This document shows positions 13,198 through 60,145 of a DNA stretch of 64,000 bases, piece after piece. The translations under genes were made by a program, and so were the position numbers. This DNA comes from an uncultured Candidatus Saccharibacteria bacterium. GTDB taxonomy: Bacteria; Patescibacteriota; Doudnabacteria; UBA920. The stretch is from NCBI GenBank assembly GCA_964473815.1, contig CAYYQK010000002.1:105128-169127 (forward strand), given 5' to 3'. The notes below the pieces were generated by a model. It saw nothing but the letters and a program-made list of their open reading frames with translations, did no database searches and was not told the DNA's origin. Positions within the stretch are counted from its first letter, which is position 1. Each line of letters begins with the position of its first letter.

Positions 13198-13220
13198 ATA
13201 AATGTGGTTTTAATTTTTGT

Positions 13221-13332: not shown

Positions 13333-13419
13333 TGGTGCCCGAGAGAGGACTTGAACCTCCACGGGATTAATCCCACTACCACCTCAAGGTAGCGCGTCTG
13401 CCAGTTCCGCCACCCGGGC
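13333..13419 (-). tRNA. tRNA-Leu (GAG), long variable arm
   Basis: acceptor GCCCGGG, anticodon loop TTGAGGT, long extra arm, T-loop GGTTCAAGTCC, CCA. Confidence 0.85.
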
Positions 13420-32538: not shown

Positions 32539-33636
32539 ATGGCAAAAGCAAAAAAGACATCAGCAGCAAAGGCTGCAACAAGCACTGACTCTAAAGCTGG
32601 CAAGTGGGGAGCAGTTGAAAACGCGATGGATCAAATCCGCGACAAGTTTGGTGATGGCAGTATCATGAAAATTTCTGATACTCAGAAGCTAAACGTCGAA
32701 GCAATTCCAACTGGTAGTATTAGCTTGGATATGGCTTTGGGAGTAGGCGGTGTGCCAAAGGGCCGCATTGTTGAAGTTTACGGTCCGGAAAGTTCTGGTA
32801 AAACAACTTTAACTTTGCACATGATTGCTGAAGTACAAAAGCGCGGTGGTTTAGCTGCGTTCATCGATGCCGAACACGCGCTCGACCCGGAATATGCAAA
32901 ACGCATTGGTGTAAATCTGGAAGACTTACTAATTTCGCAGCCAGACAGTGGTGAACAGGCCTTAGATATTACCGAAACTTTAGTTCGAAGTAATGCGTTA
33001 GATTTAATTGTTGTTGACTCTGTTGCCGCCCTAACACCACGCGCGGAAATCGAAGGTGAGATGGGACAATCGCACATGGGATTGCAAGCAAGACTTATGT
33101 CGCAAGCCTTGCGTAAGTTAACTGGAATTATTGCGAAGTCGAATACAACTGTTGTGTTCATCAACCAGATTCGCATGAAGATTGGTGTGATGTTTGGTAA
33201 CCCAGAAACCACTACTGGCGGAAACGCGTTGAAGTTTTATGCAAGTGTTCGTGTTGAGATTCGCCGTACCGCGCAAATTAAAAATGGCGATAAAATTATT
33301 GGTAACCGAACGAAGGCTAAAGTTGTAAAGAATAAAGTGGCACCGCCGTTTAAAGTTGCTGAATTTGATATTATGTACAACGAAGGAATTTCTGCTGCGG
33401 GTGATGTGCTCGACACTGGAATTCTAACCGGCGTTATAAATAAAAGTGGTAACTCATATTCATTTGAAGATATTAAACTTGGTGTCGGCCGCGAAACTGC
33501 CAAAACATTCCTAAAAGAAAATAAAGATATTTTTGCTAAAGTGGATAAAGCATTGCGTGAAAAACTGAGTTCTGGTGAACCACTAATGAATAAAGAAATG
33601 GAAGATCTTGGTTCAGACGAAGAAGACGAAGATTAA
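32539..33636 (+). CDS. recA: recombinase RecA
   Basis: GPESSGKTT Walker [11 protein letters not shown]1/L2 loop motifs; full-length. Confidence 0.97.
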
Positions 33637-33649
33637 TCTATATATAGTA

Positions 33650-33690
33650 GAGCCCGTGGTTGCGATCGCGCCACGGGCTTTTTCTTTTGT
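33650..33690 (+). terminator. rho-independent terminator (agcccgtgg-ttgcgatcgcg-ccacgggct + T-run)
   Basis: 9-bp perfect stem then TTTTCTTTTG immediately after recA. Confidence 0.75.
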
Positions 33691-33709
33691 AATCATTTAT
33701 ACTATATAT

Positions 33710-35911
33710 ATGGTTGATAATAGAAGATATTGTAGTGTTGACCTGGAATTTACGGGTTTTGACCCGGCAATCGACCAAATCTTGGAAATAGGATTTGCGT
33801 TTTTTGAATTGGGGCCAGATGGTTTTGTTGTGACAGAGGAATGGTCGCAAGTTTTTAAGCCAAGCATAGAAGTGCACCCAAAGATTTTGGGTTTAACTGG
33901 TATCACACAAGAAGAGTTAGATAACGCGCCAGAGTTTAACGAGCACCGTGAAGTGTTGCAAGAGAAATTAGGTGATGCAATTATCGTGGGTCATAACCCA
34001 ACCATGGACGTGAAGTTTTTAGAAAGTTACGGAATTAAGTTGTCTGGTCAGATTGTAGACACGCTTGAATTAGTGCAATTTATTTTACCAACCCATCATA
34101 GTTACAACTTGGAAAACTTGGTGCATTACTTTGGCGTGAAGCATCATAAAGCGCATCGTGCGTTGGGCGATGCTCTTTCTACGATTCAGGTTTTGGAAAA
34201 TCTAATTCGTGTTTATCAAAAGTTTCCAGAAAAGTTGCAAAGTGAATTGCAAGAAGTAATTAATCGTAGTGAGTTTTTGTGGCAGAAATTAGTAGATGCA
34301 AAACTACCGGAGAAACAATTAGAACAAAACGATTCCTTAGCTCATAACAATGCACGTCAAAAATTACAGCCATTTAATATTAATAACGAGTTAATTATTA
34401 TTGATGACGATGGCAATGATCATGAAGCACGAGTTGCACTAGGTTTGAAGAAAAGCAATACACCAAGTGTGTTAGCAGTAAGCGATAGCATAACTGCAAT
34501 GCGTTTATGGCGTGCTGGTTTTGCTCACGGAATATTTTTAAGCGAAGATACTTTTTCGGAAGTAGCGTTTAAAAAGTTTTTAGAACGAGCACAAACTCAA
34601 GAAGAGTTACGATTCTGTTTAAAGATAATTGTTTGGCTTCATACCAATTGGCAAACAGAAGTTGTGTTTGATTTAAACATTTCTTTCTTTGGCGGACAGT
34701 TTAGACAATTTATTGTTGGCGGGAAAGCACGAACTACAAATGAGAATGTAATCGTTTTAGATTATGTTACTTTGCAATCACTTGCACTCACCGGAAAGTT
34801 TAAAGATCGCAAACTAGTCATCTGCGACATTTTAAATTTTGAAAAATATATAAGTTCGGGTTTTGGAACAAGACTGGCATGGGGCCAAGTGTTGTATGCT
34901 TTGCGTTTAGTTTACAATCCTGAAACAGAATTTGGTATTTTAGAATTAAAAGATAAAGTCATCGATGCATTGGTTGCAACAGATTTATTTTTTGGTTTAG
35001 TGTTCATGCTAACGCATCAATCTTTACCTAACAATCAATATGCTAATTTACATGACTTAGCTAATAATCATTCCCAGGTTTATTCTCGATTGTCACAGGC
35101 TGCTACAAACCTTAAAGATAAGCTTGTCGACATAGCTGATCATACCAAGTCGGGTGAGCTAGGGCGAGTGGTGAATTTCTTAACGGATTTCTTCGAGGAG
35201 AACCCCGGACATGTAAAGTGGATTACTATCGATGAATATAACTCAACCTTTCATGACCAGCCTATAGATATATCAGAAAGCGTGACAGATATAACCTCTC
35301 ACTTCGCTCAACTACAATTTACTGAGAGCATCACTGACAAGGCTTTACTTTCTTATCTTGTTGATCGTCTCGGGTTACATAATGAAGAATCCGAGATTAC
35401 CAATAAAACATTACCAAAGAACCTGCATATTGAGGTTGTTAATTCAGAGCCATCAGATGAAGAGTTGTTTAATTTAAGTGCAAACTCCGCGCTGCCATTA
35501 GTAATGGTGATGCAGCAACCATCAAATGTAAAAGAATTTTATAACGCGCATTACTCTGAAATAAAGAAAACCGCTAGTCTTTTTGCACAAGGATATTCCG
35601 GAGGCGGTAATAAGATGTTCCGCAACTTCTCTATTAGAGAAAATAGTATTCTTTTAGTCACTGCAGACTTCATGGCAAAGCAAAACTATTTAATTACCGC
35701 AAAAAATTTGGTATTTATAGGTTTGCCCAACATAGAAACTCAACATCCTTACACTGCAGCATTGCTTCAGCACTGGAAAAAACAACACCCACACTTAGAA
35801 GAAGTTATGCAGTTACAAAAAATGGTTGGTGCACTAAAAAAATTAAAATTAGATGGCCAAACTAACGTACAAATTTATACAAACGACAAAAATTTTTCCT
35901 TTTGGGGATAA
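33710..35911 (+). CDS. DEDDh 3'-5' exonuclease (DnaQ-like) domain protein with ~550-aa uncharacterised C-terminal region
   Basis: Exo I SVDLEFTG, Exo II IIVGHNPTMDVKFL, Exo III HKAHRALGDA; no Walker A seen in C-terminal part; start set after recA terminator. Confidence 0.65.
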   Translation: MVDNRRYCSVDLEFTGFDPAIDQILEIGFAFFELGPDGFVVTEEWSQVFKPSIEVHPKILGLTGITQEELDNAPEFNEHREVLQEKLGDAIIVGHNPTMDVKFLESYGIKLSGQIVDTLELVQFILPTHHSYNLENLVHYFGVKHHKAHRALGDALSTIQVLENLIRVYQKFPEKLQSELQEVINRSEFLWQKLVDAKLPEKQLEQNDSLAHNNARQKLQPFNINNELIIIDDDGNDHEARVALGLKKSNTPSVLAVSDSITAMRLWRAGFAHGIFLSEDTFSEVAFKKFLERAQTQEELRFCLKIIVWLHTNWQTEVVFDLNISFFGGQFRQFIVGGKARTTNENVIVLDYVTLQSLALTGKFKDRKLVICDILNFEKYISSGFGTRLAWGQVLYALRLVYNPETEFGILELKDKVIDALVATDLFFGLVFMLTHQSLPNNQYANLHDLANNHSQVYSRLSQAATNLKDKLVDIADHTKSGELGRVVNFLTDFFEENPGHVKWITIDEYNSTFHDQPIDISESVTDITSHFAQLQFTESITDKALLSYLVDRLGLHNEESEITNKTLPKNLHIEVVNSEPSDEELFNLSANSALPLVMVMQQPSNVKEFYNAHYSEIKKTASLFAQGYSGGGNKMFRNFSIRENSILLVTADFMAKQNYLITAKNLVFIGLPNIETQHPYTAALLQHWKKQHPHLEEVMQLQKMVGALKKLKLDGQTNVQIYTNDKNFSFWG

Positions 35912-39774: not shown

Positions 39775-41085
39775 ATGAAAATCAAAAACTTTTTTAACAA
39801 AATTAGTAAAGCGTTTGTACTAACTGCAATCGCTGCTTTGCCATTGTTGTCTTTGGGTTGTAATAGCTCTGGTCCCCAAACCGGCCCGGTTGTAATTAAC
39901 ATTTGGAAACCATTTGTGGATACTGACAAAATGGAAAGCATTATCAGCGCGTATCAGTCGAAGCATCCGACGGTAACAATCATGTACACCAAGAAAAACA
40001 TTGATAACTATCAAACTGATTTGTTAAATGCTTTGGCCGCCGGAAATGGACCAGATATTTTTTCCATCAACAATACTTGGGTTCCCCAGTACTTAGACAA
40101 AATTGTTCCTGCGCCGGAAAAAGTTTTTACTGTTAAAGATTATCATGACACCTTTGTTGACCCAATGTCATCCGACTTAATTCGTGACGGAAAAATTTAC
40201 GGCACTGCAATGTGGGTGGACTCACTCGGCCTCTACTATAATAAAGATTTGATGGGCACAGCCGGCATAGCAACTCCGCCAAAAACCTGGGATGAACTCG
40301 CTACAGACACACGCCGTATAGTTCGCCAGGATAGCAACGGTTACTTTGACCGCAGTGGCCCGGCTATGGGTACAAACAAAAATGTAAATCGTGGCACTGA
40401 TATTATTTATTTATTGATGCTTCAGGCTGGCGCGTTGCCTTGGTCTAGCGATGGTAGTACTCCGCAGTTCGGAAATGAAATTACTAAAAACGGTAATTCG
40501 TTTAACCCTGGTGAAAAAGCCGTAGAATTTTACACTTCGTTCTCTGACCCAAAGAGTGCTAACTACAGCTGGAATCAAGATAGCGACTATTCAATAGATG
40601 CTTTTGCCAATGGCCGCGCCGCATTCTTATATGGATATTCTTACACTCGTTCGCAAATCAATTCCAAAGCACCAAACTTAAATTATGATGTGGCGCCAGT
40701 GCCGCAATACAATTTAACTGATCCGACTGTAAATTACTCTAATTATTTCGCAGAAGTTGTTAGTAAGCAAAGTAAGAATCAGGCCGTGGCTTGGGACTTC
40801 TTAAAGTTTGCTACTAGCAAAGACGCTTTGGCTGGATACTATAAAGCAGACAAAGAACCATCTTCTCGCCGCGATTTGATAGAACTGCAAAGTAATGATC
40901 CGGAAATGGGCGTGTTTGCTCATGCCAATTTAACCGGTAAAACTTTTTACAAAGTAGATGAAGCGAAGTTTGATGCAATCATCGGCGATATGATCGATAA
41001 TATTGTACTTCGTGGTCAAACAATTGACCAGGCTGTTCAACGAGCACAGTCGCAGGCGAGTACGTTGTCATTAATTAGAACTTAA
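39775..41085 (+). CDS. extracellular solute-binding protein (ABC transporter, family 1, sugar-type) with lipoprotein-like signal (LGC)
   Basis: signal peptide + LSLGCNSS lipobox; SBP_bac_1-like pattern; no permease/ATPase genes adjacent. Confidence 0.7.
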   Translation: MKIKNFFNKISKAFVLTAIAALPLLSLGCNSSGPQTGPVVINIWKPFVDTDKMESIISAYQSKHPTVTIMYTKKNIDNYQTDLLNALAAGNGPDIFSINNTWVPQYLDKIVPAPEKVFTVKDYHDTFVDPMSSDLIRDGKIYGTAMWVDSLGLYYNKDLMGTAGIATPPKTWDELATDTRRIVRQDSNGYFDRSGPAMGTNKNVNRGTDIIYLLMLQAGALPWSSDGSTPQFGNEITKNGNSFNPGEKAVEFYTSFSDPKSANYSWNQDSDYSIDAFANGRAAFLYGYSYTRSQINSKAPNLNYDVAPVPQYNLTDPTVNYSNYFAEVVSKQSKNQAVAWDFLKFATSKDALAGYYKADKEPSSRRDLIELQSNDPEMGVFAHANLTGKTFYKVDEAKFDAIIGDMIDNIVLRGQTIDQAVQRAQSQASTLSLIRT

Positions 41086-41099: not shown

Positions 41100-41600
41100 A
41101 TGAACCGATTGTTTGCAAAAATTATTCTTGCTTCCGCATTAACTTTAGTTAGCGTTTTAGGTGTATCGATAGTCTCTTCTGCCCCACAAGTTTTTGCGCA
41201 AAACACGCAGCCTACTGACAAGCCAACCAATGGCGAAAAAGGTGGTTTTGTTCCTTGCGGTAATACTGCTGATAATCCTTGCACGGTCGGACATTTGTTT
41301 GCCGCGTTCGTTGTGATTGTGAATTACTTAATTAGTATGGCAGGTTTTGTAGCAGTATTCTTTATAGTGTTCGCGGGGTTGCAAATGGTTTCCTCGCAAG
41401 GACAAGAAAAACTTGCCGCATCAAAAAAAAGATTAACCGGCGCGATTACTGGTTTGGTTATAGTGGCGCTTGCTTTTGTATTAGCTAACGCATTATTCGC
41501 TGGAAGTCTAAGCGTGGGAGTAAAAGATGGCCCAAGCATTTTAGCAAATCCGCTCGACTATATTAGTAAAGCCGAGTTAAGTAATACAAATTCTAAGTAA
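41100..41600 (+). CDS. pilin-like small secreted protein, paralog 1 of 7 (signal peptide, Cys-containing N-domain, 2 TM, conserved Q/S-G-N/Q...K-K/G-R motif)
   Basis: architecture shared with six downstream genes; motif MVSSQGQEKLAASKKRLTGAITGLVIVALAF; resembles CPR T4SS-pilin/TrbC-like family. Confidence 0.6.
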   Translation: MNRLFAKIILASALTLVSVLGVSIVSSAPQVFAQNTQPTDKPTNGEKGGFVPCGNTADNPCTVGHLFAAFVVIVNYLISMAGFVAVFFIVFAGLQMVSSQGQEKLAASKKRLTGAITGLVIVALAFVLANALFAGSLSVGVKDGPSILANPLDYISKAELSNTNSK

Positions 41601-42044
41601 ATGAAATTCTTCTCAAAACTAAAATCCGTCATAACCATTCTAGGCTTTGCCGTTTTGTTGATGGTCTTTCTGAATCAGTTGGTCATATCTACACCACAGA
41701 CTTATGCTGCTAATAGCAACAGTAATACTGTAAAGGCCATTTTAGGAGCGAACGCCAATATCCCCGATGCAAAGGTCGTCACACCGGCAAAAATATCTAA
41801 CCCTGTTGGAACTGACTCATTGCTTGGAGTCGGGACTAAACTAATAAAATTCTTGCTGGGATTAATTGTTATCGTAGCGGTTATCGCTATTGTAATTGCT
41901 GGTTTTAGAATGATCACCGGCGGTGCGAACCCATCACAAATTGCCCAAGCTAAACGCGCAATTATTTGGGCGATTGTTGGGTTAGCAGTCGCATTATTCT
42001 CTTTTGCGATAATCGAAATGGTTAATACCTTTATAGCTAAATAG
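41601..42044 (+). CDS. pilin-like small secreted protein, paralog 2 of 7
   Basis: signal peptide; ITGGANPSQIAQAKRAIIWAIVGLAVALFSF C-terminal module. Confidence 0.6.
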   Translation: MKFFSKLKSVITILGFAVLLMVFLNQLVISTPQTYAANSNSNTVKAILGANANIPDAKVVTPAKISNPVGTDSLLGVGTKLIKFLLGLIVIVAVIAIVIAGFRMITGGANPSQIAQAKRAIIWAIVGLAVALFSFAIIEMVNTFIAK

Positions 42045-42045
42045 T

Positions 42046-42927
42046 ATGAAATTTTACAGGTTTACAAAATGGTTAGCTGTGGCTGAAATTATTATTTCGG
42101 TACTTTTTGTTGTAAATATAAACACTACTTTCGCTCAAACTACAAGTACAGCCCAGAATTCTTGTACAACCGCAACTTTAACTTTAATTAATAGCGCCAC
42201 AGGCCAAAAAGCAACAAGTCAAACGATTAAATCTTCTCAAGCAAGCAAGTACGGCCTTAGGGTAAATATTCATACGAACCCAGTTTGCACACCTACAAAC
42301 TTTAGTTTACTCGGAGCAACATATGAAGATGTAAATGGCTCGCACAGTACACCAGTTCAAACAGTTACATTTTGTAATGAGTGTAGTTATGGTGCCGGTG
42401 ATTTTCAGCAAGATACTCAAGCATTTGGCACGCCGAGTAACACGACTTATTCTTATAATTTACTAGTTAATACTAGTGTAAGCTCAGTAACTACTCATAT
42501 AAATGTAACTTTTACAGACGACAAAGGAAATATTAACAAAAATGGTATTGGTGGTAATTTGAATACTAATTCCCGTGGTGGTAGTAATGCCAACAACAGC
42601 AACACTCCACTTCCCGACGTAAACACTGGTGTGAGCGCGAACTTTAATACGAACTTTGATTCAACAATAAGTTTGTTTCCTAATCTTCTAAATATAGATT
42701 CTGTTCCGGCTTTAATTGCCGCGTTGGTAAAAATATTATTTACGCTCACGGGTTTAGTAGCTGTTGTGGTAATTATTATTGCCGGCTTCCGAATGGTGAT
42801 GTCGCAGGGTAATGAATCCGAAATTACCAAAGGAAAGAAAGCAATCACATGGGCCATTGCCGGATTAATAGTTTCGATTTTAGCATTTAGTATTGTCGCC
42901 ATCATACAAAGCATTATTAGAGGTTAA
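42046..42927 (+). CDS. pilin-like protein, paralog 3 of 7, with expanded Asn/Gly/Thr-rich variable domain
   Basis: signal peptide; long low-complexity middle; C-terminal MSQGNESEITKGKKAITWAIAGLIVSILAF module. Confidence 0.6.
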   Translation: MKFYRFTKWLAVAEIIISVLFVVNINTTFAQTTSTAQNSCTTATLTLINSATGQKATSQTIKSSQASKYGLRVNIHTNPVCTPTNFSLLGATYEDVNGSHSTPVQTVTFCNECSYGAGDFQQDTQAFGTPSNTTYSYNLLVNTSVSSVTTHINVTFTDDKGNINKNGIGGNLNTNSRGGSNANNSNTPLPDVNTGVSANFNTNFDSTISLFPNLLNIDSVPALIAALVKILFTLTGLVAVVVIIIAGFRMVMSQGNESEITKGKKAITWAIAGLIVSILAFSIVAIIQSIIRG

Positions 42928-42935
42928 ATAAAATA

Positions 42936-43346
42936 ATGAAAACCATTCAAAAATATTTTTTAGTAGTTCTGTCATCCGCTACTTTACTTCTGCCACACTT
43001 GGCATTAGCGCAAACTGCAAATAATCAAGGCACTTGCGCGGAATTGAAACAGCAATTTGATAACGCTGGCGGTACAAACGTAGTTGCTAGTGTGCCGTGG
43101 TACTGTTCCGTACCAGACGTTTATACTAAATTCATCAACGTGGCCATGTTCGCAGTTGGAATTGTAGCAGTGTTGGCTATTATTTATGGCGGTTATCTAT
43201 ATATGACAGCGCAAAGCAATGAAGCGCAAAGAAAAAAGGGACGCGACGTATTAACCTGGGCAGTAATCGGATTGGTTGTTGTCATTGCAGCCGCAGTAAT
43301 CGTTGATGTCGTTGTTAAGGGACTTGTTGAAAAATCGTTTGTATAA
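42936..43346 (+). CDS. pilin-like protein, paralog 4 of 7
   Basis: signal peptide; Cys pair; MTAQSNEAQRKKGRDVLTWAVIGLVVVIAA module. Confidence 0.6.
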   Translation: MKTIQKYFLVVLSSATLLLPHLALAQTANNQGTCAELKQQFDNAGGTNVVASVPWYCSVPDVYTKFINVAMFAVGIVAVLAIIYGGYLYMTAQSNEAQRKKGRDVLTWAVIGLVVVIAAAVIVDVVVKGLVEKSFV

Positions 43347-43408
43347 TCTGTGAGATATAGTAAAATAAAGCTAGGTTATTTAAAGCTTAAAACTTTTCCC
43401 GAAAGGCG

Positions 43409-43837
43409 GTGAAAACATTGAAACAAACCCTAAAAAAATTAAATTGGTTAGGAGTGGCTCAGGTAATTATGGTTGGTGCATTTATGTTGCTACCAGTAGT
43501 TCCTAGCGTTGCTCACGGTGCATTGGTTGATACTTTCGTAAACCAGTGTCCGGCTGATACCGGCGTTCGCTGTAGCGAAGGCAGTATCGCTTCCATCTTT
43601 AAATTGATCATCAGCTGGGCTTTGGCTATTGCTTTCATCGCTGCTGTAATCATGCTTATCGTTGGTGGTTTCCGTTACATCACTTCTGCTGGAAACACTG
43701 ATTCTGCTACCAAAGGTAAGACTGCGATCATCAACGCTTTGATTGGTATTGTAATTATCGTTTTGTCTTACATTATCGTTCAGATCGTTTACCGCTTCGT
43801 AGCTGGTACAGGCGGCGGCGGTGCACTTGGTCAATAA
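43409..43837 (+). CDS. pilin-like protein, paralog 5 of 7 (GTG start)
   Basis: GTG start with GAAAGG SD; ITSAGNTDSATKGKTAIINALIGIVIIVLSYIIVQIVYRF module nearly identical to paralog 6. Confidence 0.6.
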   Translation: MKTLKQTLKKLNWLGVAQVIMVGAFMLLPVVPSVAHGALVDTFVNQCPADTGVRCSEGSIASIFKLIISWALAIAFIAAVIMLIVGGFRYITSAGNTDSATKGKTAIINALIGIVIIVLSYIIVQIVYRFVAGTGGGGALGQ

Positions 43838-43949
43838 ACTTACTACAATTTCTTTTCCCGCATTGTTTTTATACTTGCGGGATAGTTCTGGGAACGAAAG
43901 TTAAGACTACTACTTTTGTTTCCAGAACTATTAAAAACATAAAAATCGA

Positions 43950-44369
43950 ATGACAAATAAAATTTTATCCCTAACAGTTTTGCTTAGCAGCGTAATGGTT
44001 GTTGTGATGGCTTTATTTGCACAGCCAGTTGGAGCTCAAGTAACCGGAGGCCCTGGCACCAGTACTGGTGGCGATCAGGTACAAAATGGTTTAGGAGTCG
44101 TTGGGCAGGCGTTCCCTTCAGGTGCTAAAGAACCTATTAGTGTTCCTGATTTTGTACACAAAATTATCAACTGGGCTTTATACATTGCCGCTATTGCAGC
44201 AGTGATCATGTTAATTGTCGGTGGATACTTTTACATTTTCTCTGCAGGTAACTCCGCAAATGCGACCAAAGGCCGAACCACTCTAGTAAATGCTCTTATC
44301 GGATTATCTGTTATCGTGTTGTCTTACATTATTGTTCAAGTAGTTTACAGATTCTTAGTAAGTCGTTAA
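43950..44369 (+). CDS. pilin-like protein, paralog 6 of 7
   Basis: FSAGNSANATKGRTTLVNALIGLSVIVLSYIIVQVVYRF module. Confidence 0.6.
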   Translation: MTNKILSLTVLLSSVMVVVMALFAQPVGAQVTGGPGTSTGGDQVQNGLGVVGQAFPSGAKEPISVPDFVHKIINWALYIAAIAAVIMLIVGGYFYIFSAGNSANATKGRTTLVNALIGLSVIVLSYIIVQVVYRFLVSR

Positions 44370-44382
44370 TTAATTTCGTTTT

Positions 44383-45207
44383 GTGAAATTACTTCAATCT
44401 ATAATTTCTAAAATTTCTATAACCATGCTGGCGACGTTCAGCATGGTTTTACTAGTACCAACCCCTGCTCAGGCACTGAACACTCCTTTCGTGGGGTGTA
44501 TTAATCATTCAACAGGTGATTTGTTTTTATACGATTCAGTGAAAGGTTGTCCAAATGGATTCGAGAGAAGTGAATACATGCGCTCTGATGCTGATGGTCA
44601 TGTGTTTACCGGCGTTTGTATTGTAAAAACTGGTAGCAGTTATGGCGGAATCGAAATTGGCCCGGATGGATTTGATGACTATATGCTTAATACAACAGGA
44701 GATAAATGTGAATCAGCCACCGGCCCTGCATGGCCATACCGGTCTTACGCTTCAATCAAAGCGTATGACGGCGGAGACGATAATGGCAATGGAAATGTAA
44801 ATATCAACACCAATACGAATAACAACACTGGTAGAGGCGGCGGGACTAATTCAAACAACAACGGTTCTTCAGCCCAAGTCCCTTGTGAAAATGAACCCGG
44901 GTTCCATAAAGTTGGACCTTTGTGTGTACCAAATAGTCCGGTATCAGATCCTAACGCAGTAGTAAACAAACATGATTTCCCAAGTTTGGCAGCGATGGTC
45001 ATTAAAATTCTTTTGTACTTTGCAGGAATTGTAGCCGTGATCTTTGCGATCATTGGTGGCTACCAAATTATGACCGCACAAGGAAATGCGGCACAGGCAA
45101 CTAATGGCCGTAAGACTTTAACGAATGCTTTGATTGGTTTGGGTATTGTAATTTTGGCCTATATCATTGTTCAGGCAGTAGTATCATTTTTAACAAAACC
45201 ATTGTAA
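44383..45207 (+). CDS. pilin-like protein, paralog 7 of 7, with Cys-rich and Asn/Gly-rich variable domain
   Basis: signal peptide; MTAQGNAAQATNGRKTLTNALIGLGIVILAYIIVQAV module. Confidence 0.6.
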   Translation: MKLLQSIISKISITMLATFSMVLLVPTPAQALNTPFVGCINHSTGDLFLYDSVKGCPNGFERSEYMRSDADGHVFTGVCIVKTGSSYGGIEIGPDGFDDYMLNTTGDKCESATGPAWPYRSYASIKAYDGGDDNGNGNVNINTNTNNNTGRGGGTNSNNNGSSAQVPCENEPGFHKVGPLCVPNSPVSDPNAVVNKHDFPSLAAMVIKILLYFAGIVAVIFAIIGGYQIMTAQGNAAQATNGRKTLTNALIGLGIVILAYIIVQAVVSFLTKPL

Positions 45208-45317: not shown

Positions 45318-45404
45318 GCCGGGGTGGCGAAATTGGCAGACGCACCAGCCTTAGGAGCTGGCGGGAGCAATCCTGTGGAGGTTCAAGTCCTCTCCCCGGC
45401 ACCA
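45318..45404 (+). tRNA. tRNA-Leu (TAG), long variable arm
   Basis: acceptor GCCGGGG/CCCCGGC, anticodon loop CTTAGGA, extra arm, T-loop GGTTCAAGTCC, CCA. Confidence 0.85.
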
Positions 45405-47362: not shown

Positions 47363-48259
47363 GTGAATTTTACAAAAATATTCCGCCAAGCTTATCTCTT
47401 AACAATTCACAACCCATTGTTGTGGTTGTTTGGAATAGTATTGCTTGGCGGATTTAATTTATCTTTGGTAAATTTTGCAGCACTGATGCATAACCAAACC
47501 TGGAAAACGTGGCCTCTGCCACTGCACTTGTTTTCTTTTGATGAACCGCGCCAAATTGTGGCAGTGATAATTGTCGTTGTTATTACTTTTGCAATTTTAC
47601 ATTTTTTAAAACTTGCTTTCATCATTTTTTCTCACAGCTTAATTCATAAAGTTGATGAAAGTGAGAACAAAGAAAATATTCATTGCCGACTTTGTGTGCA
47701 CGTAAAAAATAACACCACCCCATTGCTAATTTGGTGGATGAGAATAATGTCCGCGAGTTTAATTACAATCGCCATAACCGCAGGCTTAAGTTTTATTGTT
47801 AATTCTTTACTTAGCCAGACAGGTGGAAATTTTGAAATTGCGCTGGTCATCAATTTACTGTTTTTGATTGTGGTGACTTGTGTCGTTGGAACATGGAATA
47901 CTTTCACGGCATATTTTATTACATTACATGACTTAAATTTTCATGCCGCAATTGCAGCTGCCTTTGACTTGTTGGTGATGCGCTTTCGACGCATTTTTGA
48001 ATTCATAGTGTGCTTGTCTGCGTTTTATACCTTGGCGGTATTAATTGGCAATGCCTTCATTAATGGGTGGCAGCATGGTTTTGATCGGGGCGAGATTATG
48101 GAAGTTCGGGTAGTGTTTTTGGTATTTTTTGCCATTTGGTTTGCGGTTAATAACACTTTCTTTAACCTTGCCTTCTTGTTATTTTTCGACAGCCTTGTAA
48201 AATCAAGTCAAAATAAAGAACCTCTACACAGTACTGAACCATTGGCAGAACCGATTTAA
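47363..48259 (+). CDS. hypothetical polytopic membrane protein
   Basis: 298-aa ORF with ~7 TM helices. Confidence 0.4.
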   Translation: MNFTKIFRQAYLLTIHNPLLWLFGIVLLGGFNLSLVNFAALMHNQTWKTWPLPLHLFSFDEPRQIVAVIIVVVITFAILHFLKLAFIIFSHSLIHKVDESENKENIHCRLCVHVKNNTTPLLIWWMRIMSASLITIAITAGLSFIVNSLLSQTGGNFEIALVINLLFLIVVTCVVGTWNTFTAYFITLHDLNFHAAIAAAFDLLVMRFRRIFEFIVCLSAFYTLAVLIGNAFINGWQHGFDRGEIMEVRVVFLVFFAIWFAVNNTFFNLAFLLFFDSLVKSSQNKEPLHSTEPLAEPI

Positions 48260-49931: not shown

Positions 49932-51023
49932 GTGAATATGTGCCCAGTAAAATCTTGGGACCGTGATAAGGTCATCGAAGTAATACTTGAAAGGCATGCC
50001 AATGGATTGCCTCTCAATTCAAATTTTCAGCAGTTGCATAATGCTTCGTTATACTGTGCCGCAACTAATTATTGTGGTAGTTGGCGTAAAGCTATTGAGG
50101 ACGCAGGGTTAAAATATGATGATGTAAAGATTAAGAAACGCGCAACTCCAAAGTGGGGCAAAGAGAAAGTCGTAAAAACTATTCTTAATCGAAAAATTGA
50201 AGACTTGCCACTGAACTCAAACTTCGTTCAGTTAAATGAGCAGTTGCTTTATGCAGCGGCTTGCAAGTATTTCAAAGGATGGCGACAAGCAATCGAGGCC
50301 TCTGGTTTGGATTACAACCAGATTCGCAAAGTTTTTTTGAGAACCTGGAGCAAGAAGGCAATCGTTGCTGAAATTAAACGCCGCAAACGCAAAGGATTAT
50401 CAGTAAACGGCGAAACTGTCAGTTCAGAAGACAGGGGTTTGTATAATGCGGCTCGTCGGCACTTTGGCATTGGTGGTTGGAAAAAAGCATTGCTTTTTGC
50501 CGGCATTAATCCGAAGGATATTGATCCAAACCGTAAATGGACCAAGCGCAGAATACTTTCAAGAATTAGAAAGCTCCATAGAGCAGGTTTACCGGTCTAT
50601 GGCTATGCCCTAATCAAATCCGGACAACAGAATCTAGTTGCTGGAGCGGAAAAATATTTTGGAAGCTGGCGTAAAGCCATTGAGGCCGCGGGTTTACAAT
50701 GGAAAAAAGTCCGAGGGGTGAAGAAGTTTTATTGGTGGACCCCTGACCGTGTAAAATCTCAGATTCGATATTGGGCAAATCGTGGCGAGTCTTTAAGCCT
50801 AAATTCGTTTCGCAAAGATCACGGTGATCTCGTCGGTGCTGCGATTTTACATTTCGAATCTTGGAGCCAAGCGGTATATGCTAGTGGTATTGACTATTTA
50901 GCTCACACTAAGGTATGGTCAACTAAAGCTTGGTTAAGGAATTTATCAGATACGGACGTACAAAATCTTGAACAGCACGTTCGCAAGGCATCACATTTGA
51001 GGAGGAAAAATGCCAGAACTTGA
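49932..51023 (+). CDS. tandem-repeat protein (~7 x 45-50 aa repeats with signature ...LY.AA..YFGSWRKAIEAAGL...), probably nucleic-acid-binding
   Basis: internal periodicity visible in protein: GSWRKAIEDAGL / KGWRQAIEASGL / GGWKKALLFAGI / GSWRKAIEAAGL / ESWSQAVYASGI. Confidence 0.5.
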   Translation: MNMCPVKSWDRDKVIEVILERHANGLPLNSNFQQLHNASLYCAATNYCGSWRKAIEDAGLKYDDVKIKKRATPKWGKEKVVKTILNRKIEDLPLNSNFVQLNEQLLYAAACKYFKGWRQAIEASGLDYNQIRKVFLRTWSKKAIVAEIKRRKRKGLSVNGETVSSEDRGLYNAARRHFGIGGWKKALLFAGINPKDIDPNRKWTKRRILSRIRKLHRAGLPVYGYALIKSGQQNLVAGAEKYFGSWRKAIEAAGLQWKKVRGVKKFYWWTPDRVKSQIRYWANRGESLSLNSFRKDHGDLVGAAILHFESWSQAVYASGIDYLAHTKVWSTKAWLRNLSDTDVQNLEQHVRKASHLRRKNART

Positions 51024-54828: not shown

Positions 54829-55338
54829 ATGTTAATTATTCGTTTACAACGTGCTGGTAAAAAGAATAAAGCTGATTTCCGGCTTGTTCTTGCGCAAAAG
54901 ACCGCTGCTAGCCAAAAGAAATTCACTGAAGTAATGGGTTCTTACAATCCACATACTAAGAATTTGCAAATCCGTGATCAGGAACGTTTGAACTATTGGG
55001 TTAATGACCAACATGTAGAAGTCTCTCCTACTGCTTACAACCTTCTTGTTGCTAAAGAAATCATCAAAGGTGATAAGAAAAAAGCATTCACAATTCCTAA
55101 AAAGGAAGTAGTGGCTGAAGAGCCAGCTGCCGAAGCTCCAGTTTCAGCAGAGGGTGCAGCAGTAGAAGAGCCGGCAACTGAAGCAGTTCCAGCAGAAGAA
55201 ACTGCTGCATCTGAACCAGCAGCAGAAACACCGGCAGAAGCTGAAGCTCCAACCGTAGAACCTGTGGCTGAAGAGCCAGCAGCTGAGCCAACTCCAGAAT
55301 CAACCGAACCTGCTGAAACAACTGAATCACAAGAATAA
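54829..55338 (+). CDS. rpsP: 30S ribosomal protein S16 with C-terminal Pro/Ala/Glu-rich repeat extension
   Basis: MLIIRLQRAGKKNKADFRLVL N-terminus; C-terminal EPAAE/PAEE repeats. Confidence 0.9.
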   Translation: MLIIRLQRAGKKNKADFRLVLAQKTAASQKKFTEVMGSYNPHTKNLQIRDQERLNYWVNDQHVEVSPTAYNLLVAKEIIKGDKKKAFTIPKKEVVAEEPAAEAPVSAEGAAVEEPATEAVPAEETAASEPAAETPAEAEAPTVEPVAEEPAAEPTPESTEPAETTESQE

Positions 55339-55368: not shown

Positions 55369-55456
55369 ATGTGAGTTATCAACTGTTCAGTTGCTTTTTT
55401 CTCTTATTCGTGCTATACTTAACCCAAAGTTAGTCACAAAACAAGAAATAAAAAAT

Positions 55457-55951
55457 ATGAACAACAATAAGAAATGGTTGGCAATTGCAATATTAGTTGT
55501 AGTCGCTGCCGCAGCCTGGTTTTTGCTAGTGAAAATCGATAAAAAGAATTCGAGCAAGAATGTTAAGACTGCACCAATTGTAAAGACCACAAAGACAGAT
55601 GTGGACTTTTCGCGTGCCCCAGAAAAATTCCCAGCAGAAATTCCGATCGAAAAGGACGCAAACATTACCCAAAACTATAACGCAACAACAACTAACGGAA
55701 TCTTCCAAGCAACTAGAGTTTTTGAAAGCTCAAAAGCATCAGCAGACAACTTTAGTATTTACAAAGATTTCATGACTAAGAATGGCTGGCAGATCACTTC
55801 AACTATTGATAAGCCAAATCTAAAGTCATTGGTTGGAACAAAGGGCGCAGAAACTCTCTTGGTGAATATTACTGAAAATACTGTTAACCATAAGAAAACA
55901 GTCAGTATTAACTATAGTACTGATACTCGCGTAAAGGCAACAACAAAGTAA
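55457..55951 (+). CDS. small N-terminally anchored secreted protein, paralog A (shares FPAEIPIE motif with 59665..60144)
   Basis: N-terminal TM/signal anchor; central conserved motif; start trimmed to MNNNKKWLAIAILVVV. Confidence 0.45.
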   Translation: MNNNKKWLAIAILVVVAAAAWFLLVKIDKKNSSKNVKTAPIVKTTKTDVDFSRAPEKFPAEIPIEKDANITQNYNATTTNGIFQATRVFESSKASADNFSIYKDFMTKNGWQITSTIDKPNLKSLVGTKGAETLLVNITENTVNHKKTVSINYSTDTRVKATTK

Positions 55952-55969
55952 TATTTGCTTTAAAATATC

Positions 55970-57166
55970 ATGCACAAAAATATCCAAAATGTAGTTGTAA
56001 GAGTTCTTATTGTACTAACTGCATTACTAAGTTTGCCCGCGACACTAGTAACCACGAAAACAGTTCAGGCTAGCACTTGTGTTGGTTTATGTGAGCCGGA
56101 TGTTAACTATGTTAACAATGGTAACAACAATTTTACCGTTAAAGCCAATGAATCGCTCATGTATAACGCATGCAGCTATGATAATAATAATGGCTTGGAT
56201 GAGGCATATGTATCTGAGAATATTTCTTCGAGCTTTGGTATTTACTTCTTCGGAACTCAAGATCCAGGCAATACTCACACAGCTTACGAGCCGGATATTT
56301 CTATGCCTTACGCGCCAGGCCATACCGATGGTTGGACTTATTGCGGTTTCCCAGCCACTCCAACGGTTCCTACGTGGGCTGGTACATCAGAAAGAACCTT
56401 TAATATACCATCTGGTGAGTCTGGGTTCTTTGTGGGGTTTTTCACTCACGTAACTAGGTGGGAACGCCACCAAGGCGAATACGTTCCACAACAGGATGAA
56501 GATCAATTTGTCATAGTCTTGCAGTACACAGGACCAACCCCAAATTTGAGTTGCACCTTCTTACAGGCCACCCAAAGAATTTATCAAGGTGACTCCGTTG
56601 CTTATTCATTTAAAGTTGATACAGATAAACCTGGGTTTAGTTCTCCGGTAGCACTCTCGGCAAGTATCAGACCAGCATCGAGTGGTAACCAGGTTTCCCC
56701 ATCAGTAAGTATTGATCCGTCATACAACAACAAAGTACCCCCAACAACAGGAGTACTGCTAGTGAATGCGCCGGATAATACAACGCCGAATGATAAATAC
56801 GTTATTACAATGACAGCGACTGGAGGAGGTCAAACAAAAACTTGTATCACCAATTTGGATGTCAAAGAATGGAATCCAGATTTTCAATTACGCATAGAAC
56901 CGGATCAAAAAATGGTAAACGCTGGCCAAATAGAAGAGTACGAAGTATTCGCTGACTGCACAGGAAGTTTTGATGGCGATATAACAGGCTTAAAAGTACA
57001 GTCAACCTTTGTAAACCCTATTATAGAGTTGGGCGCAACTACTTTGCATTGCGGAAGAACAACAACAGTGAGTATAGATACATCTTCAATACCTGAGGAT
57101 CAAAGATCTAATTTAGCTACCCCTACATATCAAAACCTGACAGTAACAGGATCCGCTAATTTATAG
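55970..57166 (+). CDS. secreted hypothetical protein (signal peptide)
   Basis: 398-aa ORF with N-terminal signal peptide ending ...KTVQA. Confidence 0.5.
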   Translation: MHKNIQNVVVRVLIVLTALLSLPATLVTTKTVQASTCVGLCEPDVNYVNNGNNNFTVKANESLMYNACSYDNNNGLDEAYVSENISSSFGIYFFGTQDPGNTHTAYEPDISMPYAPGHTDGWTYCGFPATPTVPTWAGTSERTFNIPSGESGFFVGFFTHVTRWERHQGEYVPQQDEDQFVIVLQYTGPTPNLSCTFLQATQRIYQGDSVAYSFKVDTDKPGFSSPVALSASIRPASSGNQVSPSVSIDPSYNNKVPPTTGVLLVNAPDNTTPNDKYVITMTATGGGQTKTCITNLDVKEWNPDFQLRIEPDQKMVNAGQIEEYEVFADCTGSFDGDITGLKVQSTFVNPIIELGATTLHCGRTTTVSIDTSSIPEDQRSNLATPTYQNLTVTGSANL

Positions 57167-57172
57167 ACACTT

Positions 57173-59644
57173 ATGAAAATAAACACAAAAAAACAAATTT
57201 CAATTTTCAAATACGCTGTCAATAGTTTTGTAGCGGCTTCCATTTTATTTGCTCCAATAGTCTCAAATGTCGCTCCTGTAATTAACACTGCGAAAGCAGA
57301 GGTTAGCTGTACTGACGACGCTTTGCCTATCCCAACTGCGGACATGACTGTCCGTAAGGATAATGCACAGGGCGAGGTTTTAGGTACTTACCATGCACGT
57401 GGGGCAATTGATAGCCCTGATGATCCTGGCAATGGCGAAACAGGCGTTGCTACTTTCCAACTTCAAGTCCCAAAAGGTACCAAATTATATTTTACTGCCC
57501 GCACTGACGGATTTAATGGTCCAAACAGAAGTGTTGGCGGCATGCCTAACTATAGTGGCGGTGGAGTGACAGTAACATCTCCAGACGTAAAAGCTGGCTA
57601 TTACCCAAACGGCTTTTCATTTAGTCGTCTCGATGCAGTTACCGGATTAAGTGATCGGGTTATCAACGGTCCGGTGAGTTTAGGCATGGGTGGTGATTGG
57701 AGTTGTTGGGGTGGAGATCGTGACTCACACGTGCAATTAATAGTAAATGTTGTCACTAAACCATCCACTAATTTAGTTACTCGTACAGCTACAACAAATT
57801 TAGCCGTAATTAATGATCCTGCAGTGTCCTCTCATTGCTCTTCTGCGAATGACCCTGGGAATAATTCAACTTGTCGAGTTGATCTTAATGACGGTGCTAC
57901 TATAAGCTGGAATGCCGAATCAACCACTAATGGAAATTCTTGTATCGCTACGAATGATAATACCTCGAGTAACCCAGACTCAAATTGGAATGGAGCAAAG
58001 GATGGAACAAGTGGAACTCAGGCAGTTGGGCCATTTCCTTCATTGGGAACCTTTACATATCAAATTAAATGCACCGGATTAAACGGTGTAACTTCAACTC
58101 CTTCTACAACAACATTTATTGTTGGAAACACCCCTTCGTACACTTGTCAGGTCGTTCCTTCAGGTATACAACAGGTAGACCAGGGTGGTTACGGCGCAGC
58201 TAGTTTGCATGTAACATCTTTGAGTGGTTACAATAAACCAGTAACCTTCTCGCCTGCGATTGTTTCTCCTTCCGGTGCTGGCTCGCCACAGGTGACAATT
58301 GAAGGTAATAATCCTCAGAACTCCCCATATGCTACAAACAGTCCTGTCTCAATTTTCGCCCCTGCAAACTCGGCTGTGGGTACATACACAATCACCTTTA
58401 AAACTGAAGATGGTATTGTATGTGATGGTAATGTAACTTTGCAAATAAACTCTGCAGCAGACCCAGACGGTTACATTTACTGTGGCGCTTCCGGAGCACA
58501 AACAACTTGTAAAATTAATGGCGGCGATAGTATCCCTATTCGCTGGCATGCTGAAAATGTAAATAATGATTGTGTGGTCATTGCAACTGCTAATGATGAT
58601 ACTCAGTTTGATTTTGCCACAGGCAAAGATGGTAATAAGAGTTCGGGGCCACTGAGCAAGCCAACTCAGTTCTCCTTGGGCTGTAGCGCATCAAATGGAC
58701 ACCAGGATCTTGTCCGGACTGCCTTTGTCGATATTACTTCTATTTGTACCGTAAACTGTGGAACCGGCATGTCGTTGACGGCAAGTAATTCTACTTGTGA
58801 ACAAGTTAACTTGAGCTGGTCTTCAACAGTGAATCCAGCACCAAAGAGCTACAAGCTATTTCGTAGTTTAGACGGCAATACTTATGCGGAATTTGCTACT
58901 GTGAACGATCCAACTAACACATACGTCGATAGACCTCCACAACAACTAGGGGTGTCGAATTATTATAAAATTCAAGCTTACAATGACTATAACGGAAATG
59001 GTTCTGTTGTAGCCAATGGCTCTTCCCAGGTAGTGCCCGTTCCTTGTGCTACCCCGAGTTTGGAAGGTTCTGATAAAGATGTAACAAACAGCAAGGGTAA
59101 AATTACAAAAGCGTTTAACCCACCACCTTGTAATGGTGTGTCAGATTTTGCAGTATTGCCAAACAATGCAATCTTCACTGCTGGCGATGAAGTGACCTTT
59201 AAGATTAATATTTGTAATCCTGCTGATCCTAACACTCCACCTCAGCGCGCAGACCTTACAAATATCACCGTTGAAGATACAATGCATAATCTTTCTGCGC
59301 CTACTTCTATAAAGAGCATGAGTTCAAATGGGGGTGGGACCCGTGGAGCTCCTTGTTTGCTGAGCAGTCAAGCACAGGACAATACTGACGGTGACTTTAC
59401 TGGTTTTATTACGTTTACTGTGAAGGATATACCTCGGGCAAACTTAGGGCAGTATTGTTCAATTATAATCACTGCTAAAATTCAAGCACCTCTTAACCCA
59501 ACTGCATCGATTTACCGCTTCTGGAATGAAGCAAAAATTACTGCCACTGGAAATGGTCAAACGATTACAAAGACCGTGAAAACACCTTTGTATCCATTTG
59601 GTTTAACAAATGTACCAAATCGTAACGAAACCTCTCCTCATTAA
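57173..59644 (+). CDS. large secreted Cys-containing repeat protein (Ig-like 4-Cys repeats, FN3-like domain, DUF11-like domain) with conserved C-terminal tail ...VPNRNETSPH
   Basis: signal peptide; repeated C...C..W...C modules; C-terminal 60 aa paralogous to 60146..63073. Confidence 0.6.
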   Translation: MKINTKKQISIFKYAVNSFVAASILFAPIVSNVAPVINTAKAEVSCTDDALPIPTADMTVRKDNAQGEVLGTYHARGAIDSPDDPGNGETGVATFQLQVPKGTKLYFTARTDGFNGPNRSVGGMPNYSGGGVTVTSPDVKAGYYPNGFSFSRLDAVTGLSDRVINGPVSLGMGGDWSCWGGDRDSHVQLIVNVVTKPSTNLVTRTATTNLAVINDPAVSSHCSSANDPGNNSTCRVDLNDGATISWNAESTTNGNSCIATNDNTSSNPDSNWNGAKDGTSGTQAVGPFPSLGTFTYQIKCTGLNGVTSTPSTTTFIVGNTPSYTCQVVPSGIQQVDQGGYGAASLHVTSLSGYNKPVTFSPAIVSPSGAGSPQVTIEGNNPQNSPYATNSPVSIFAPANSAVGTYTITFKTEDGIVCDGNVTLQINSAADPDGYIYCGASGAQTTCKINGGDSIPIRWHAENVNNDCVVIATANDDTQFDFATGKDGNKSSGPLSKPTQFSLGCSASNGHQDLVRTAFVDITSICTVNCGTGMSLTASNSTCEQVNLSWSSTVNPAPKSYKLFRSLDGNTYAEFATVNDPTNTYVDRPPQQLGVSNYYKIQAYNDYNGNGSVVANGSSQVVPVPCATPSLEGSDKDVTNSKGKITKAFNPPPCNGVSDFAVLPNNAIFTAGDEVTFKINICNPADPNTPPQRADLTNITVEDTMHNLSAPTSIKSMSSNGGGTRGAPCLLSSQAQDNTDGDFTGFITFTVKDIPRANLGQYCSIIITAKIQAPLNPTASIYRFWNEAKITATGNGQTITKTVKTPLYPFGLTNVPNRNETSPH

Positions 59645-59664
59645 TAGTTTTTAATTAAAACACA

Positions 59665-60144
59665 ATGAACAAAAGACTCTTAGTTCTTGGTGGTGTACTT
59701 ATCGTACTCATAGTTGCGGTTGGTGCTTATTGGCATTCACCCCACAAAAACGCAAGCATGCCTGACAATGTTATTACAAAGCAAAGTCAAACTACGGGCG
59801 CAAAGAAAGATGTAGATGCAGAGCAGCTGCCAAAAAACTTCCCTGCTGATATTCCAATCGAAGAAGGTGCTTCTGTTGTCCAAAACTTTAATGTTGATGA
59901 TAAAGGTTACCAGCAAGCAACCCGGTCTTTTGAAACACAAGTAAGTCTTGATAAAAACTTAGCGCTGTACAAAAAATATTTAACCGCAAACGGTTATAAA
60001 ATTACTGTTACTATAGACCAGCCGACCTACAAAATGGTCTCTGGTACTAAAGACAAAGATAATTTACGCATTGAAATGACTGATAATTCAGTGTCTAAGC
60101 AAAAGACAGTGAGTATCACATTCATTCAAACGGGATCAAACTAA
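59665..60144 (+). CDS. small N-terminally anchored secreted protein, paralog B
   Basis: MNKRLLVLGGVLIVLIVAVGAYW anchor; FPADIPIEEGASVVQNFN motif matching 55457..55951. Confidence 0.5.
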   Translation: MNKRLLVLGGVLIVLIVAVGAYWHSPHKNASMPDNVITKQSQTTGAKKDVDAEQLPKNFPADIPIEEGASVVQNFNVDDKGYQQATRSFETQVSLDKNLALYKKYLTANGYKITVTIDQPTYKMVSGTKDKDNLRIEMTDNSVSKQKTVSITFIQTGSN

Positions 60145-60145
60145 A

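Follow-up and report, generated by a model that had tools for sequence, protein, structure and literature searches.

Tandem arrays of genes for VirB2-like pilins of type IV secretion systems (T4SSs) were first noted in Saccharibacteria TM7x (bioRxiv 10.1101/258137, 2018), and the pilin arrays of Patescibacteria have been treated in reports from 2018, 2023 and 2025 and in a review (PMC12857230). According to the accessible text of one of these reports (Quinonero-Coronel et al. 2025, PMC12102498), arrays of 2-11 VirB2 genes are present in 383 Patescibacteria assemblies, and VirB4 is present in 2,417 of 3,035, including one genome of the GTDB class Doudnabacteria; VirB2-like genes lie near virB4 in 1,135 of 1,948 assemblies and away from it in 813, and therefore unlinked pilin genes are common. 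Here we describe an array of seven such genes, called W1-W7, in a 64,000-nt stretch of DNA (the window; contig CAYYQK010000002.1, forward-strand positions 105,128 to 169,127) from an uncultured Candidatus Saccharibacteria bacterium placed by GTDB in a Doudnabacteria lineage. The locus is best supported as a chromosomal operon of VirB2-like pilin genes, of a kind already described for Patescibacteria. With moderate confidence, we read its products as seven anciently diverged VirB2-like (Pfam PF18895) T4SS pilin paralogs, in which W5 would be the major subunit and the other six would be minor subunits, two of them (W3 and W7) equipped with host-binding heads.

The arrays of PMC12102498, as far as its accessible text describes them, resemble the present one in consisting of tandem PF18895/PF04956 genes in the chromosome of a bacterium belonging to the candidate phyla radiation (CPR), in the Sec signal peptides, in a copy number whose reported range (2-11) includes the seven found here, and in the low identity between copies (reported mean 25%, maximum 54%; here 18-26% to W1 over whole proteins). 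The definition of a tandem array used there, at least two adjacent PF18895/PF04956 genes with low inter-copy identity, describes the seven adjacent genes of the window. They differ in that they are reported to be most abundant in Microgenomatia and Saccharimonadia, whereas the window comes from a Doudnabacteria-like lineage, and in that the present array does not lie within 81 kb of any T4SS gene. In Southlakia epibionticum ML1 (SEML1_0006-0019; Wang et al. 2023, PMC10633639), a monoderm Patescibacterium without a recognisable relaxase-type conjugation function, divergent VirB2-like pilins are likewise encoded side by side; there, however, six pilins sit inside the T4SS cluster and are essential by transposon sequencing, while the seven described here are unlinked to T4SS genes and known from genes alone.

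The pilins of conjugative systems, namely VirB2 (Agrobacterium T-pilus), TrbC (RP4), TraA (F) and archaeal CedA1 (Aeropyrum pernix, PDB 8dfu), share with W1-W7 a long leader, two hydrophobic helices and a short polar or basic loop, as well as matches to TrbC/VirB2 profiles. In contrast to the present locus, each of these systems has one pilin gene, encoded with the machinery, and a mature pilin of about 7-12 kDa with no ectodomain. While the kind of array is already published, some of the comparative detail given below is new relative to the accounts cited here: positional orthology, a single invariant copy, RNA hairpins and large ectodomains are not described in the accessible text of PMC12102498, and the Patescibacteria pilin literature, to the extent that its texts are accessible, holds no description of a T4SS pilus with a major subunit and built-in ectodomain subunits.

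The open reading frame (ORF) listing of the window showed that seven consecutive plus-strand ORFs fill positions 41100-45207 (Table 1), exactly as stated, with lengths of 136-293 aa, in a preliminary description made from the DNA letters alone. The intergenic gaps from W1 to W7 are 0, 1, 8, 62, 112 and 13 nt, the stop codon of W1 directly adjoining the start codon of W2, and W1 itself begins 14 nt 3' of the stop codon of the preceding gene, which encodes a solute-binding protein (SBP). The gaps of 0-14 nt between most array genes imply co-expression; W5 has its own 62-nt gap upstream. Two starts can be considered for W7: the GTG yields a leader with a basic n-region, and the ATG, which gene callers chose, coincides in alignment with the ortholog's start in L085 (a 6.1-kb Logan contig), the closest other genome.

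Table 1. Coordinates of the array, its RNA element and the two flanking features in the window.
Feature	Coordinates	Strand	Description and basis
W1	41100..41600	+	VirB2-like pilin paralog, 166 aa; PF18895 29.0 bits, hydropathy, same-position orthologs
W2	41601..42044	+	VirB2-like pilin paralog, 147 aa, Cys-free; PF18895 42.2 bits, PF04956 28.0 bits
W3	42046..42927	+	Long paralog, 293 aa; PF18895 38.5 bits at residues 218-286
W4	42936..43346	+	Short paralog, 136 aa, one Cys pair; PF18895 43.8 bits, hydropathy, positional orthologs
W5	43409..43837	+	Candidate major subunit, 142 aa; PF18895 39.0 bits
Tandem double RNA hairpin	43856..43930	+	3' of W5 stop codon; folding and covariation
W6	43950..44369	+	Short paralog, 139 aa, Cys-free, Gly-rich N-part; PF18895 35.3 bits
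W7	44383..45207	+	Long paralog; 274 aa from GTG 44383, 260 aa from ATG 44425; PF18895 30.5 bits
SBP_bac_1 gene	39775..41085	+	Orphan solute-binding lipoprotein; Pfam 104.7 bits, LSLGC lipobox-like site in translation
tRNA-Leu(UAG)	45318..45404	+	ARAGORN, Rfam; marks 3' array boundary

All seven proteins begin with a hydrophobic leader whose last residues form a small-x-small site (VFA, TYA, TFA, ALA, AHG, VGA, AQA), the leaders being judged by hydropathy, alignment and these sites. A variable middle follows, and then two strong hydrophobic segments around a short polar loop that ends in one to three Lys or Arg residues. This confirms the architecture of signal peptide, variable middle and two helices proposed in the preliminary description, together with its Cys- or Asn/Gly/Thr-rich middle domains, as the proteins contain 0-6 Cys and N/G/S/T-rich stretches. 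The motif SAGN(T/S)...ATKG(K/R)T, which was attributed there to every copy, is found literally in W5 and W6 and not in the other five; the form general to W1-W7 is [STG][AQG][GSA][NQ]-x(5-9)-[KR]. Four of the seven proteins have just 19-34 residues between the leader and the C-terminal pilin module. W1 consists of a leader to about residue 33, a short N-part with a Cys pair, the module of two transmembrane helices and a C-terminal tail of about 30 aa that is restricted to this paralog (hydropathy segments 8-26, 71-89 and 115-133).

The assignment as VirB2/TrbC-type T4SS pilin-like proteins of a CPR bacterium, also made in the preliminary description, was upheld by profile searches with T4SS_pilin and TrbC/VirB2 models. 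Each of W1-W7 scores above the curated gathering threshold (26.6 bits) of PF18895 (T4SS_pilin, VirB2-like pilins from CPR and monoderm bacteria). For PF04956 (TrbC/VirB2, covering diderm conjugative pilins; cutoff 27.9 bits), W2 just passes, W4 (20.4 bits) and W6 (20.6 bits) remain below, and the profile scan gave no match for W1, W3, W5 and W7. All seven match NCBIfam NF045849 (Mbov_0395 pilin-like, from a Mycoplasma integrative and conjugative element) at 19.3-37.4 bits; none reaches the equivalog cutoff of 40 bits (W2, 35.2 bits), and W1-W7 are related to this family, not members of it. A hidden Markov model built from the seven C-terminal modules matched exactly W1-W7 and nothing else in the window, which is not a chance result.

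It could be argued that the genes encode unrelated small two-pass membrane proteins, whose matches to pilin profiles reflect hydrophobic composition alone. Many weak matches to unrelated membrane families were indeed obtained in the same profile scans, and the PDB searches, by sequence (nothing meaningful for the W5-family profile, the W7-family profile or W2 alone) and by fold, were without significant result. We nevertheless regard this explanation as very unlikely, considering that seven of seven proteins independently pass one curated family threshold, that three match TrbC/VirB2 at E 6e-4 or better and all seven match NF045849, albeit below its cutoff, at E 1.5e-9 to 6.4e-4, that the loop motif and the Gly/Ala positions are conserved across 52 homologs, and that PF18895 was present in 120 out of 120 of the listed homologs of W5 (235 in total).

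Other families of small surface proteins were considered and rejected. The class III signal peptide motif (G / F-T-L-x-E), which a prepilin peptidase processes in type IV pilus and Flp pilins and in the pseudopilins of type II secretion systems, is absent from all seven proteins, the lone G-x4-EY match, in W7, falling inside the ectodomain and being due to chance. LPXTG, the mark of sortase-assembled Gram-positive pilins, occurs in none of W1-W7, and no PHROG match of note pointed to a phage holin or a viral small membrane protein. Plasmid-borne pilin relatives gave no match at E up to 1 in a tblastn search of PLSDB.

For the comparison with relatives, 80 loci were fetched around homologs of FtsH, whose gene lies downstream of the array. 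The nearest FtsH relatives (54-81% identity) are from metagenome-assembled genomes of Patescibacteria, the closest with a specific name being Candidatus Doudnabacteria. The order lspA-comM-galU-SBP-(pilin array)-ftsH-rnc is kept in 38 of the 40 loci with an FtsH identity of at least 62% and at least 4 kb of upstream sequence, the array lying between the SBP gene and tRNA-Leu/ftsH, and the array arrangement was seen in none of the 17 loci with an FtsH identity of 59% or less. The copy number among relatives is 5 to 8, two relatives carrying an extra eighth copy. Invariance across distant relatives, which the preliminary description had considered contrary to its reading, is therefore seen in part: the clade keeps the order of the genes, their position and the identity of the paralogs, whereas sequences, sizes of the N-domains and copy number vary.

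Each copy from a relative has its best match in the window in its positional counterpart, usually well ahead of the others (orthologs of W5 score about 200 bits, compared with about 95 for the next paralog). Likewise, for 70 of 70 C-terminal modules from ten genomes with seven copies, the nearest neighbour in another genome is the same-position paralog, and no lineage-specific duplication was found among the nine compared relatives with a seven-gene array. C-terminal modules of different paralogs are 19-62% identical, and the longest nucleotide repeat among the paralogs is a stretch of 51 nt at 73-75% identity. Because of the positional orthology, the lack of concerted evolution and the lack of long repeats, the seven genes are old, individually maintained paralogs. 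These data contradict the preliminary description on W5 and W6, whose C-terminal modules it considered almost identical and the result of a recent duplication: they are 62% identical at the protein level, their best shared stretch (51 nt) is 73% identical, they have separate orthologs in every related genome, and the identity between W5 and W6 modules within a genome (52%) is close to that between genomes (48%). Gene conversion between the two was rejected on the grounds of the same module identity, positional orthology and absence of long repeats.

The rates of evolution of the seven genes are very unequal. Relative to L085, whose SBP and FtsH proteins are 94% and 95% identical to those of the window (82-86% at the nucleotide level), these flanking genes show 0.03-0.05 nonsynonymous substitutions per site (dN) and 0.8-2.2 synonymous substitutions per site (dS). 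The mature W5 protein is 100% identical in the two genomes (dN 0, nucleotide identity 92%), and its dS is only 0.28-0.52, compared with at least 0.8 for all the other genes. The C-terminal modules of the other paralogs are 83-86% identical (dN 0.09-0.12, dS mostly saturated; 74-78% nucleotide identity for whole genes). Also in nine more distant genomes W5 is the most conserved copy, with a mean identity of 57% in the N-part and 72% in the C-terminal module, against 15-31% and 41-61%, respectively, for the other six paralogs. Its codon bias is the strongest of the seven and close to that of a ribosomal-protein gene: the effective number of codons is 38.9 in W5, 44-61 in the other copies and 36.3 in rpsP.

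W5 has a leader of 37 residues and a mature form of 105 aa (10.8 kDa), which carries a nearly invariant CPxxTGVRC disulphide loop in addition to the helix-loop-helix module. In its AlphaFold2 (AF2) model, the helix of the leader and a second, short one precede a long hairpin of helices 59-91 and 97-131, a block with a predicted local distance difference test score (pLDDT) of 77-92. The best fold match of this model in the PDB is 8dfu, the conjugation pilus of Aeropyrum pernix, at a non-significant level (E 1.3, probability 0.8, TMt 0.66).

Directly 3' of the W5 stop codon, the RNA is predicted to fold into two hairpins, the first with a 7-bp stem (CCCGCA/UGCGGG) and the second with a 19-bp stem, with a minimum free energy of -38.3 kcal/mol (z -8.5); none of 200 shuffled sequences folded equally well. 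When 23 relatives were folded, most of them had two hairpins at the matching place, including cases in which the sequence is different, and compensatory changes affect 12 of the 24 predicted pairs in an alignment of 14 sequences from relatives. The sequence occurs once in the window and matches no Rfam family, and the sole terminator-like match of a terminator scan sits inside W2. This intercistronic element probably serves to terminate, process or stabilise the message of W5. The invariance of the mature protein, the low dS, the codon bias, the upstream gap of its own and the conserved double hairpin lead us to propose that W5 is probably an abundant major subunit.

These results also bear on the possibility that the array is a repertoire whose members are used alternatively or serve antigenic variation, with each paralog building its own homopolymeric pilus and the cell switching between them to match its hosts or to escape recognition. 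This interpretation is put forward, tentatively, for Patescibacteria in the accessible text of PMC12102498, and it agrees with the great divergence of the paralogs and with the fast turnover of N-domains between relatives described below. A precedent may be seen in the VirB2 families of Bartonella and Anaplasma phagocytophilum, in which a host-dependent bacterium also has multiple divergent tandem VirB2 genes, and which are read as a source of antigenic or host-range variation. In the array described here, however, the paralogs are stable and individually orthologous, and lineage-specific duplication, recombination or concerted evolution of the kind expected from the Bartonella and Anaplasma families was not found among the copies, the eighth copy of two relatives outside the nine compared notwithstanding. 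Furthermore, no nucleotide repeats are available for recombination, the short gaps between most genes imply co-expression, and a set of interchangeable pilins does not predict a uniquely invariant and codon-biased W5. Old, individually conserved paralogs do not fit a shuffling repertoire, and we consider this alternative unlikely.

The proposal of one major and six minor pilins assigns a special place to the two long paralogs. In W3, a leader (residues 1-30) is followed by an orphan ectodomain with four Cys (about 31-165), which a linker rich in N/G/S/T (about 166-215) joins to the VirB2-like module (216-293). Among 1.84 billion cluster representatives, no more than two relatives of the W3 N-domain could be detected, both of them proteins of about 300 aa, like W3 itself. 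W7 is composed of a leader, a beta-rich ectodomain with four Cys, a disordered N/G/T linker, a disulphide hairpin with the sequence C-x-GFHKVGPLCVPNSPF and the VirB2-like module. An alignment of 59 sequences of the W7 family showed that C25, C42, C65, C95 and C167 are invariant, with four invariant Cys in the N-domain, and that the C-x-GFHKVGPLCVPNSPF loop between linker and pilin module is conserved, while the linker is very variable in length and composition (N/G-rich or T/P-rich). No slippage-prone DNA repeats were found in the N/G-rich linkers with Tandem Repeats Finder. In the AF2 model of W7 the beta-rich N-domain has a pLDDT of 91-97, linker residues 120-148 are below 50, and a small beta-hairpin and a helical hairpin (helices 185-217 and 222-257) are also present; the N-domain gave no significant fold match in the PDB.

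The N-domains of the two long paralogs evolve very fast. In the comparison with L085 the N-domains of W3 and W7 are only 40% and 46% identical (dN 0.64 and 0.58, dS 2.3 and 1.7), compared with 84% and 83% for the respective modules. The diversifying selection on N-domains suggested in the preliminary description is thus upheld as far as very fast evolution of W3 and W7 is concerned (dN about 0.6 against 0.03-0.05 in the flanking genes), but not as an excess of nonsynonymous change: the crude dN/dS ratio of these domains is 0.27-0.34, not above 1, and because dS is saturated for the long N-domains (1.7-2.3), this ratio neither establishes nor excludes positive selection. Exact-protein look-ups for strain-level variants that could be used for dN/dS gave the same strain alone. 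Orthologous positions in other genomes carry different, larger ectodomains, all with a C-terminal PF18895 module. Examples are a 407-aa protein with an FN3-like Pur_ac_phosph_N domain (30.5 bits; locus L007, 6161-7384) and a 411-aa protein with PG_binding_1 (50.1 bits; locus L045, 8181-9416), and pilin-module proteins of 471 and 519 aa were also found in relatives. The ectodomains of W3 and W7 are most likely heads for binding to the host surface, held on flexible tethers.

Family membership, architecture, positional orthology, unequal rates of evolution, codon bias and the conserved RNA structure are results of the analysis, while the formation of a pilus, the division into major and minor roles, the adhesin function and the reliance on a T4SS are inferred. 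A possible mechanism can be outlined for the favoured reading. Each pilin would be exported by Sec, and its leader would be cut by signal peptidase I; cyclisation or acetylation is known for some conjugative pilins. The C-terminal helix-loop-helix would enter the membrane so that the Lys/Arg-bearing loop is inside and the two ends are outside, an arrangement that can be compared with solved VirB2-type pili (F, T and archaeal conjugative), whose lumen is lined by the loop and whose termini point outward. The subunits could then be extracted, and polymerised into a pilus or stalk, by a T4SS whose genes lie elsewhere in the genome. The double hairpin may end or stabilise the W5 transcript, so that W5 would outnumber W6 and W7; the other six copies would be minor subunits, among which W3 and W7 would display their fast-evolving globular ectodomains on N/G/T-rich tethers. 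Functionally, such a structure would be analogous to type IV pili with their major and minor pilins and to chaperone-usher pili with their tip adhesins, in that an abundant conserved subunit is combined with rare ones, some of which have binding domains. There is, however, no homology with either; the class III and LPXTG motifs are missing from the proteins, and no PilB or usher gene was found in the window.

Several facts weigh against a pilus of this kind. To judge from PMC10633639 and PMC12857230, no T4SS pilus has been observed in any Patescibacterium, a pilus is only a possibility even for cultivated Saccharibacteria (PMC12857230), and monoderm T4SSs are generally without pili (PMC12857230 and the accessible text of PMC12102498). 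The ectodomains of 170-440 aa far exceed in size whatever known VirB2 pilins carry, and a filament lattice might not accommodate them. No T4SS machinery gene is present within 81 kb (contig positions 97.6-178.7 kb), and the similarity to solved pilins is non-significant by fold search and absent by sequence. With regard to expression, no U-tract follows the hairpins, which makes a terminator role uncertain, and a promoter consensus scan did not rise above the shuffled background.

Some of these facts would be accounted for if no filament were formed at all, and the two-helix module were a membrane anchor or part of a secretion channel that holds the ectodomains at the cell surface or wall, possibly without a T4SS. 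The usual lack of pili in monoderm T4SSs, the separation of the array from T4SS genes together with its tight linkage to the gene of an orphan SBP lipoprotein, the ectodomains of up to about 440 aa, one of which has the PG_binding_1 domain mentioned above, and the generic helical hairpins that were the only outcome of the fold searches all speak for it. On the other hand, the matches to the PF18895 and TrbC profiles are a sign of homology with pilins that polymerise, four of the seven proteins would have little to display, the plain W5, with its extreme conservation and its codon bias, is more easily explained as an abundant structural subunit than as an anchor, and the pilin series of Southlakia epibionticum sits within an essential T4SS cluster (PMC10633639). 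On balance, the absence of a filament seems to us somewhat unlikely.

If the reading of a heteromeric pilus is taken one step further, the VirB2-like module could be a universal C-terminal polymerisation module for interchangeable ectodomains (orphan beta, FN3-like or peptidoglycan-binding), and the array could encode a T4SS pilus whose minor and adhesin subunits are built in around one invariant major pilin, with a stoichiometry set by the intercistronic double hairpin. We offer this extension tentatively, as a possible but doubtful one; if it is true, these episymbionts would recognise their hosts by means of the modular ectodomain pilus. The one Patescibacterium amenable to genetics requires T4SS pilin arrays for its epibiotic growth. 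From the combination of one structural-looking subunit with modular outer domains that change rapidly, one would predict a surface structure that is heteromeric and has subunits dedicated to host binding, and the comparison names the proteins to seek in proteomes and tomograms.

As for the genomic surroundings, the window is a piece of housekeeping chromosome, with recA, ftsK, infB, lspA, comM, a GalU-like gene, ftsH, rnc, parB, smc and rpsP. Its sequence is identical to ENA ERZ15185866 NODE_13, which is 205.6 kb long. Profile scans of the window found no VirB4, VirD4 or PilB, in agreement with the preliminary description, and nothing but housekeeping genes and an island is present in the 10 kb beyond each of its ends. 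The SBP_bac_1 gene has no gene for an ABC permease or ATPase beside it. Of the 38 loci that carry the array and extend at least 4 kb upstream, 35 have an SBP gene immediately 5' of it, as does L085. The SBP gene is possibly co-transcribed with the array, and a functional link with the pilins is possible; the association is conserved but unexplained.

On the 3' side, the tRNA-Leu gene is followed by ftsH at 45450. Five relatives have minus-strand genes of 2.4-5 kb between the array and ftsH (L028 5383-10000, L036 6663-10000, L054 4777-10000, L055 4726-8597 and L040 7589-10000), which belong to no known families save for one match to a cold-shock domain; the inserts of L028, L036 and L054 were judged unrelated to the array. 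Since these inserts are found where the window has tRNA-Leu, an integration hotspot is suggested between the array and ftsH. Directly after ftsH, positions 47363-48259 encode a 298-aa multi-pass membrane protein with no Pfam family; its position is kept in many loci while its sequence is only 22-47% identical, and it therefore evolves much faster than its neighbours.

Some further features of the window should be mentioned. The low-GC stretch 1-13100 (33-36% GC) contains a LOOT RNA (Rfam RF03000, 76 bits, at 9269-9383), an EcoRI-like methylase, a GmrSD/HNH nuclease, an SRAP peptidase, methyltransferases and a large serine recombinase that overlaps a cluster of four tRNA genes at 13019-13419, and it looks like an integrated island. 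A 767-aa protein (33608-35911) is a DEDDh/RNase T exonuclease in its first 200 or so residues, the remaining 570 or so being without a family. The protein encoded at 49932-51023, directly upstream of parB, has 363 aa and matches to the homing-endonuclease-associated HNH_repeat, and a small PhdYeFM-like antitoxin gene lies just before it. Ribosomal protein S16 (54829-55338) has an Ala/Glu/Pro-rich C-terminal tail of about 80 residues. Finally, two similar cassettes occupy positions 55391-63073, between rpsP and a KH-domain gene; in each, a small membrane protein with a single pass (186 or 159 aa, Pfam AF_1845) precedes large Cys-rich repeat proteins that are secreted. The latter (398, 823 and 975 aa) have no Pfam family, the 823-aa and 975-aa proteins share a terminal ...PNRNETS[PA]H motif, and the cassette proteins are probably surface proteins.

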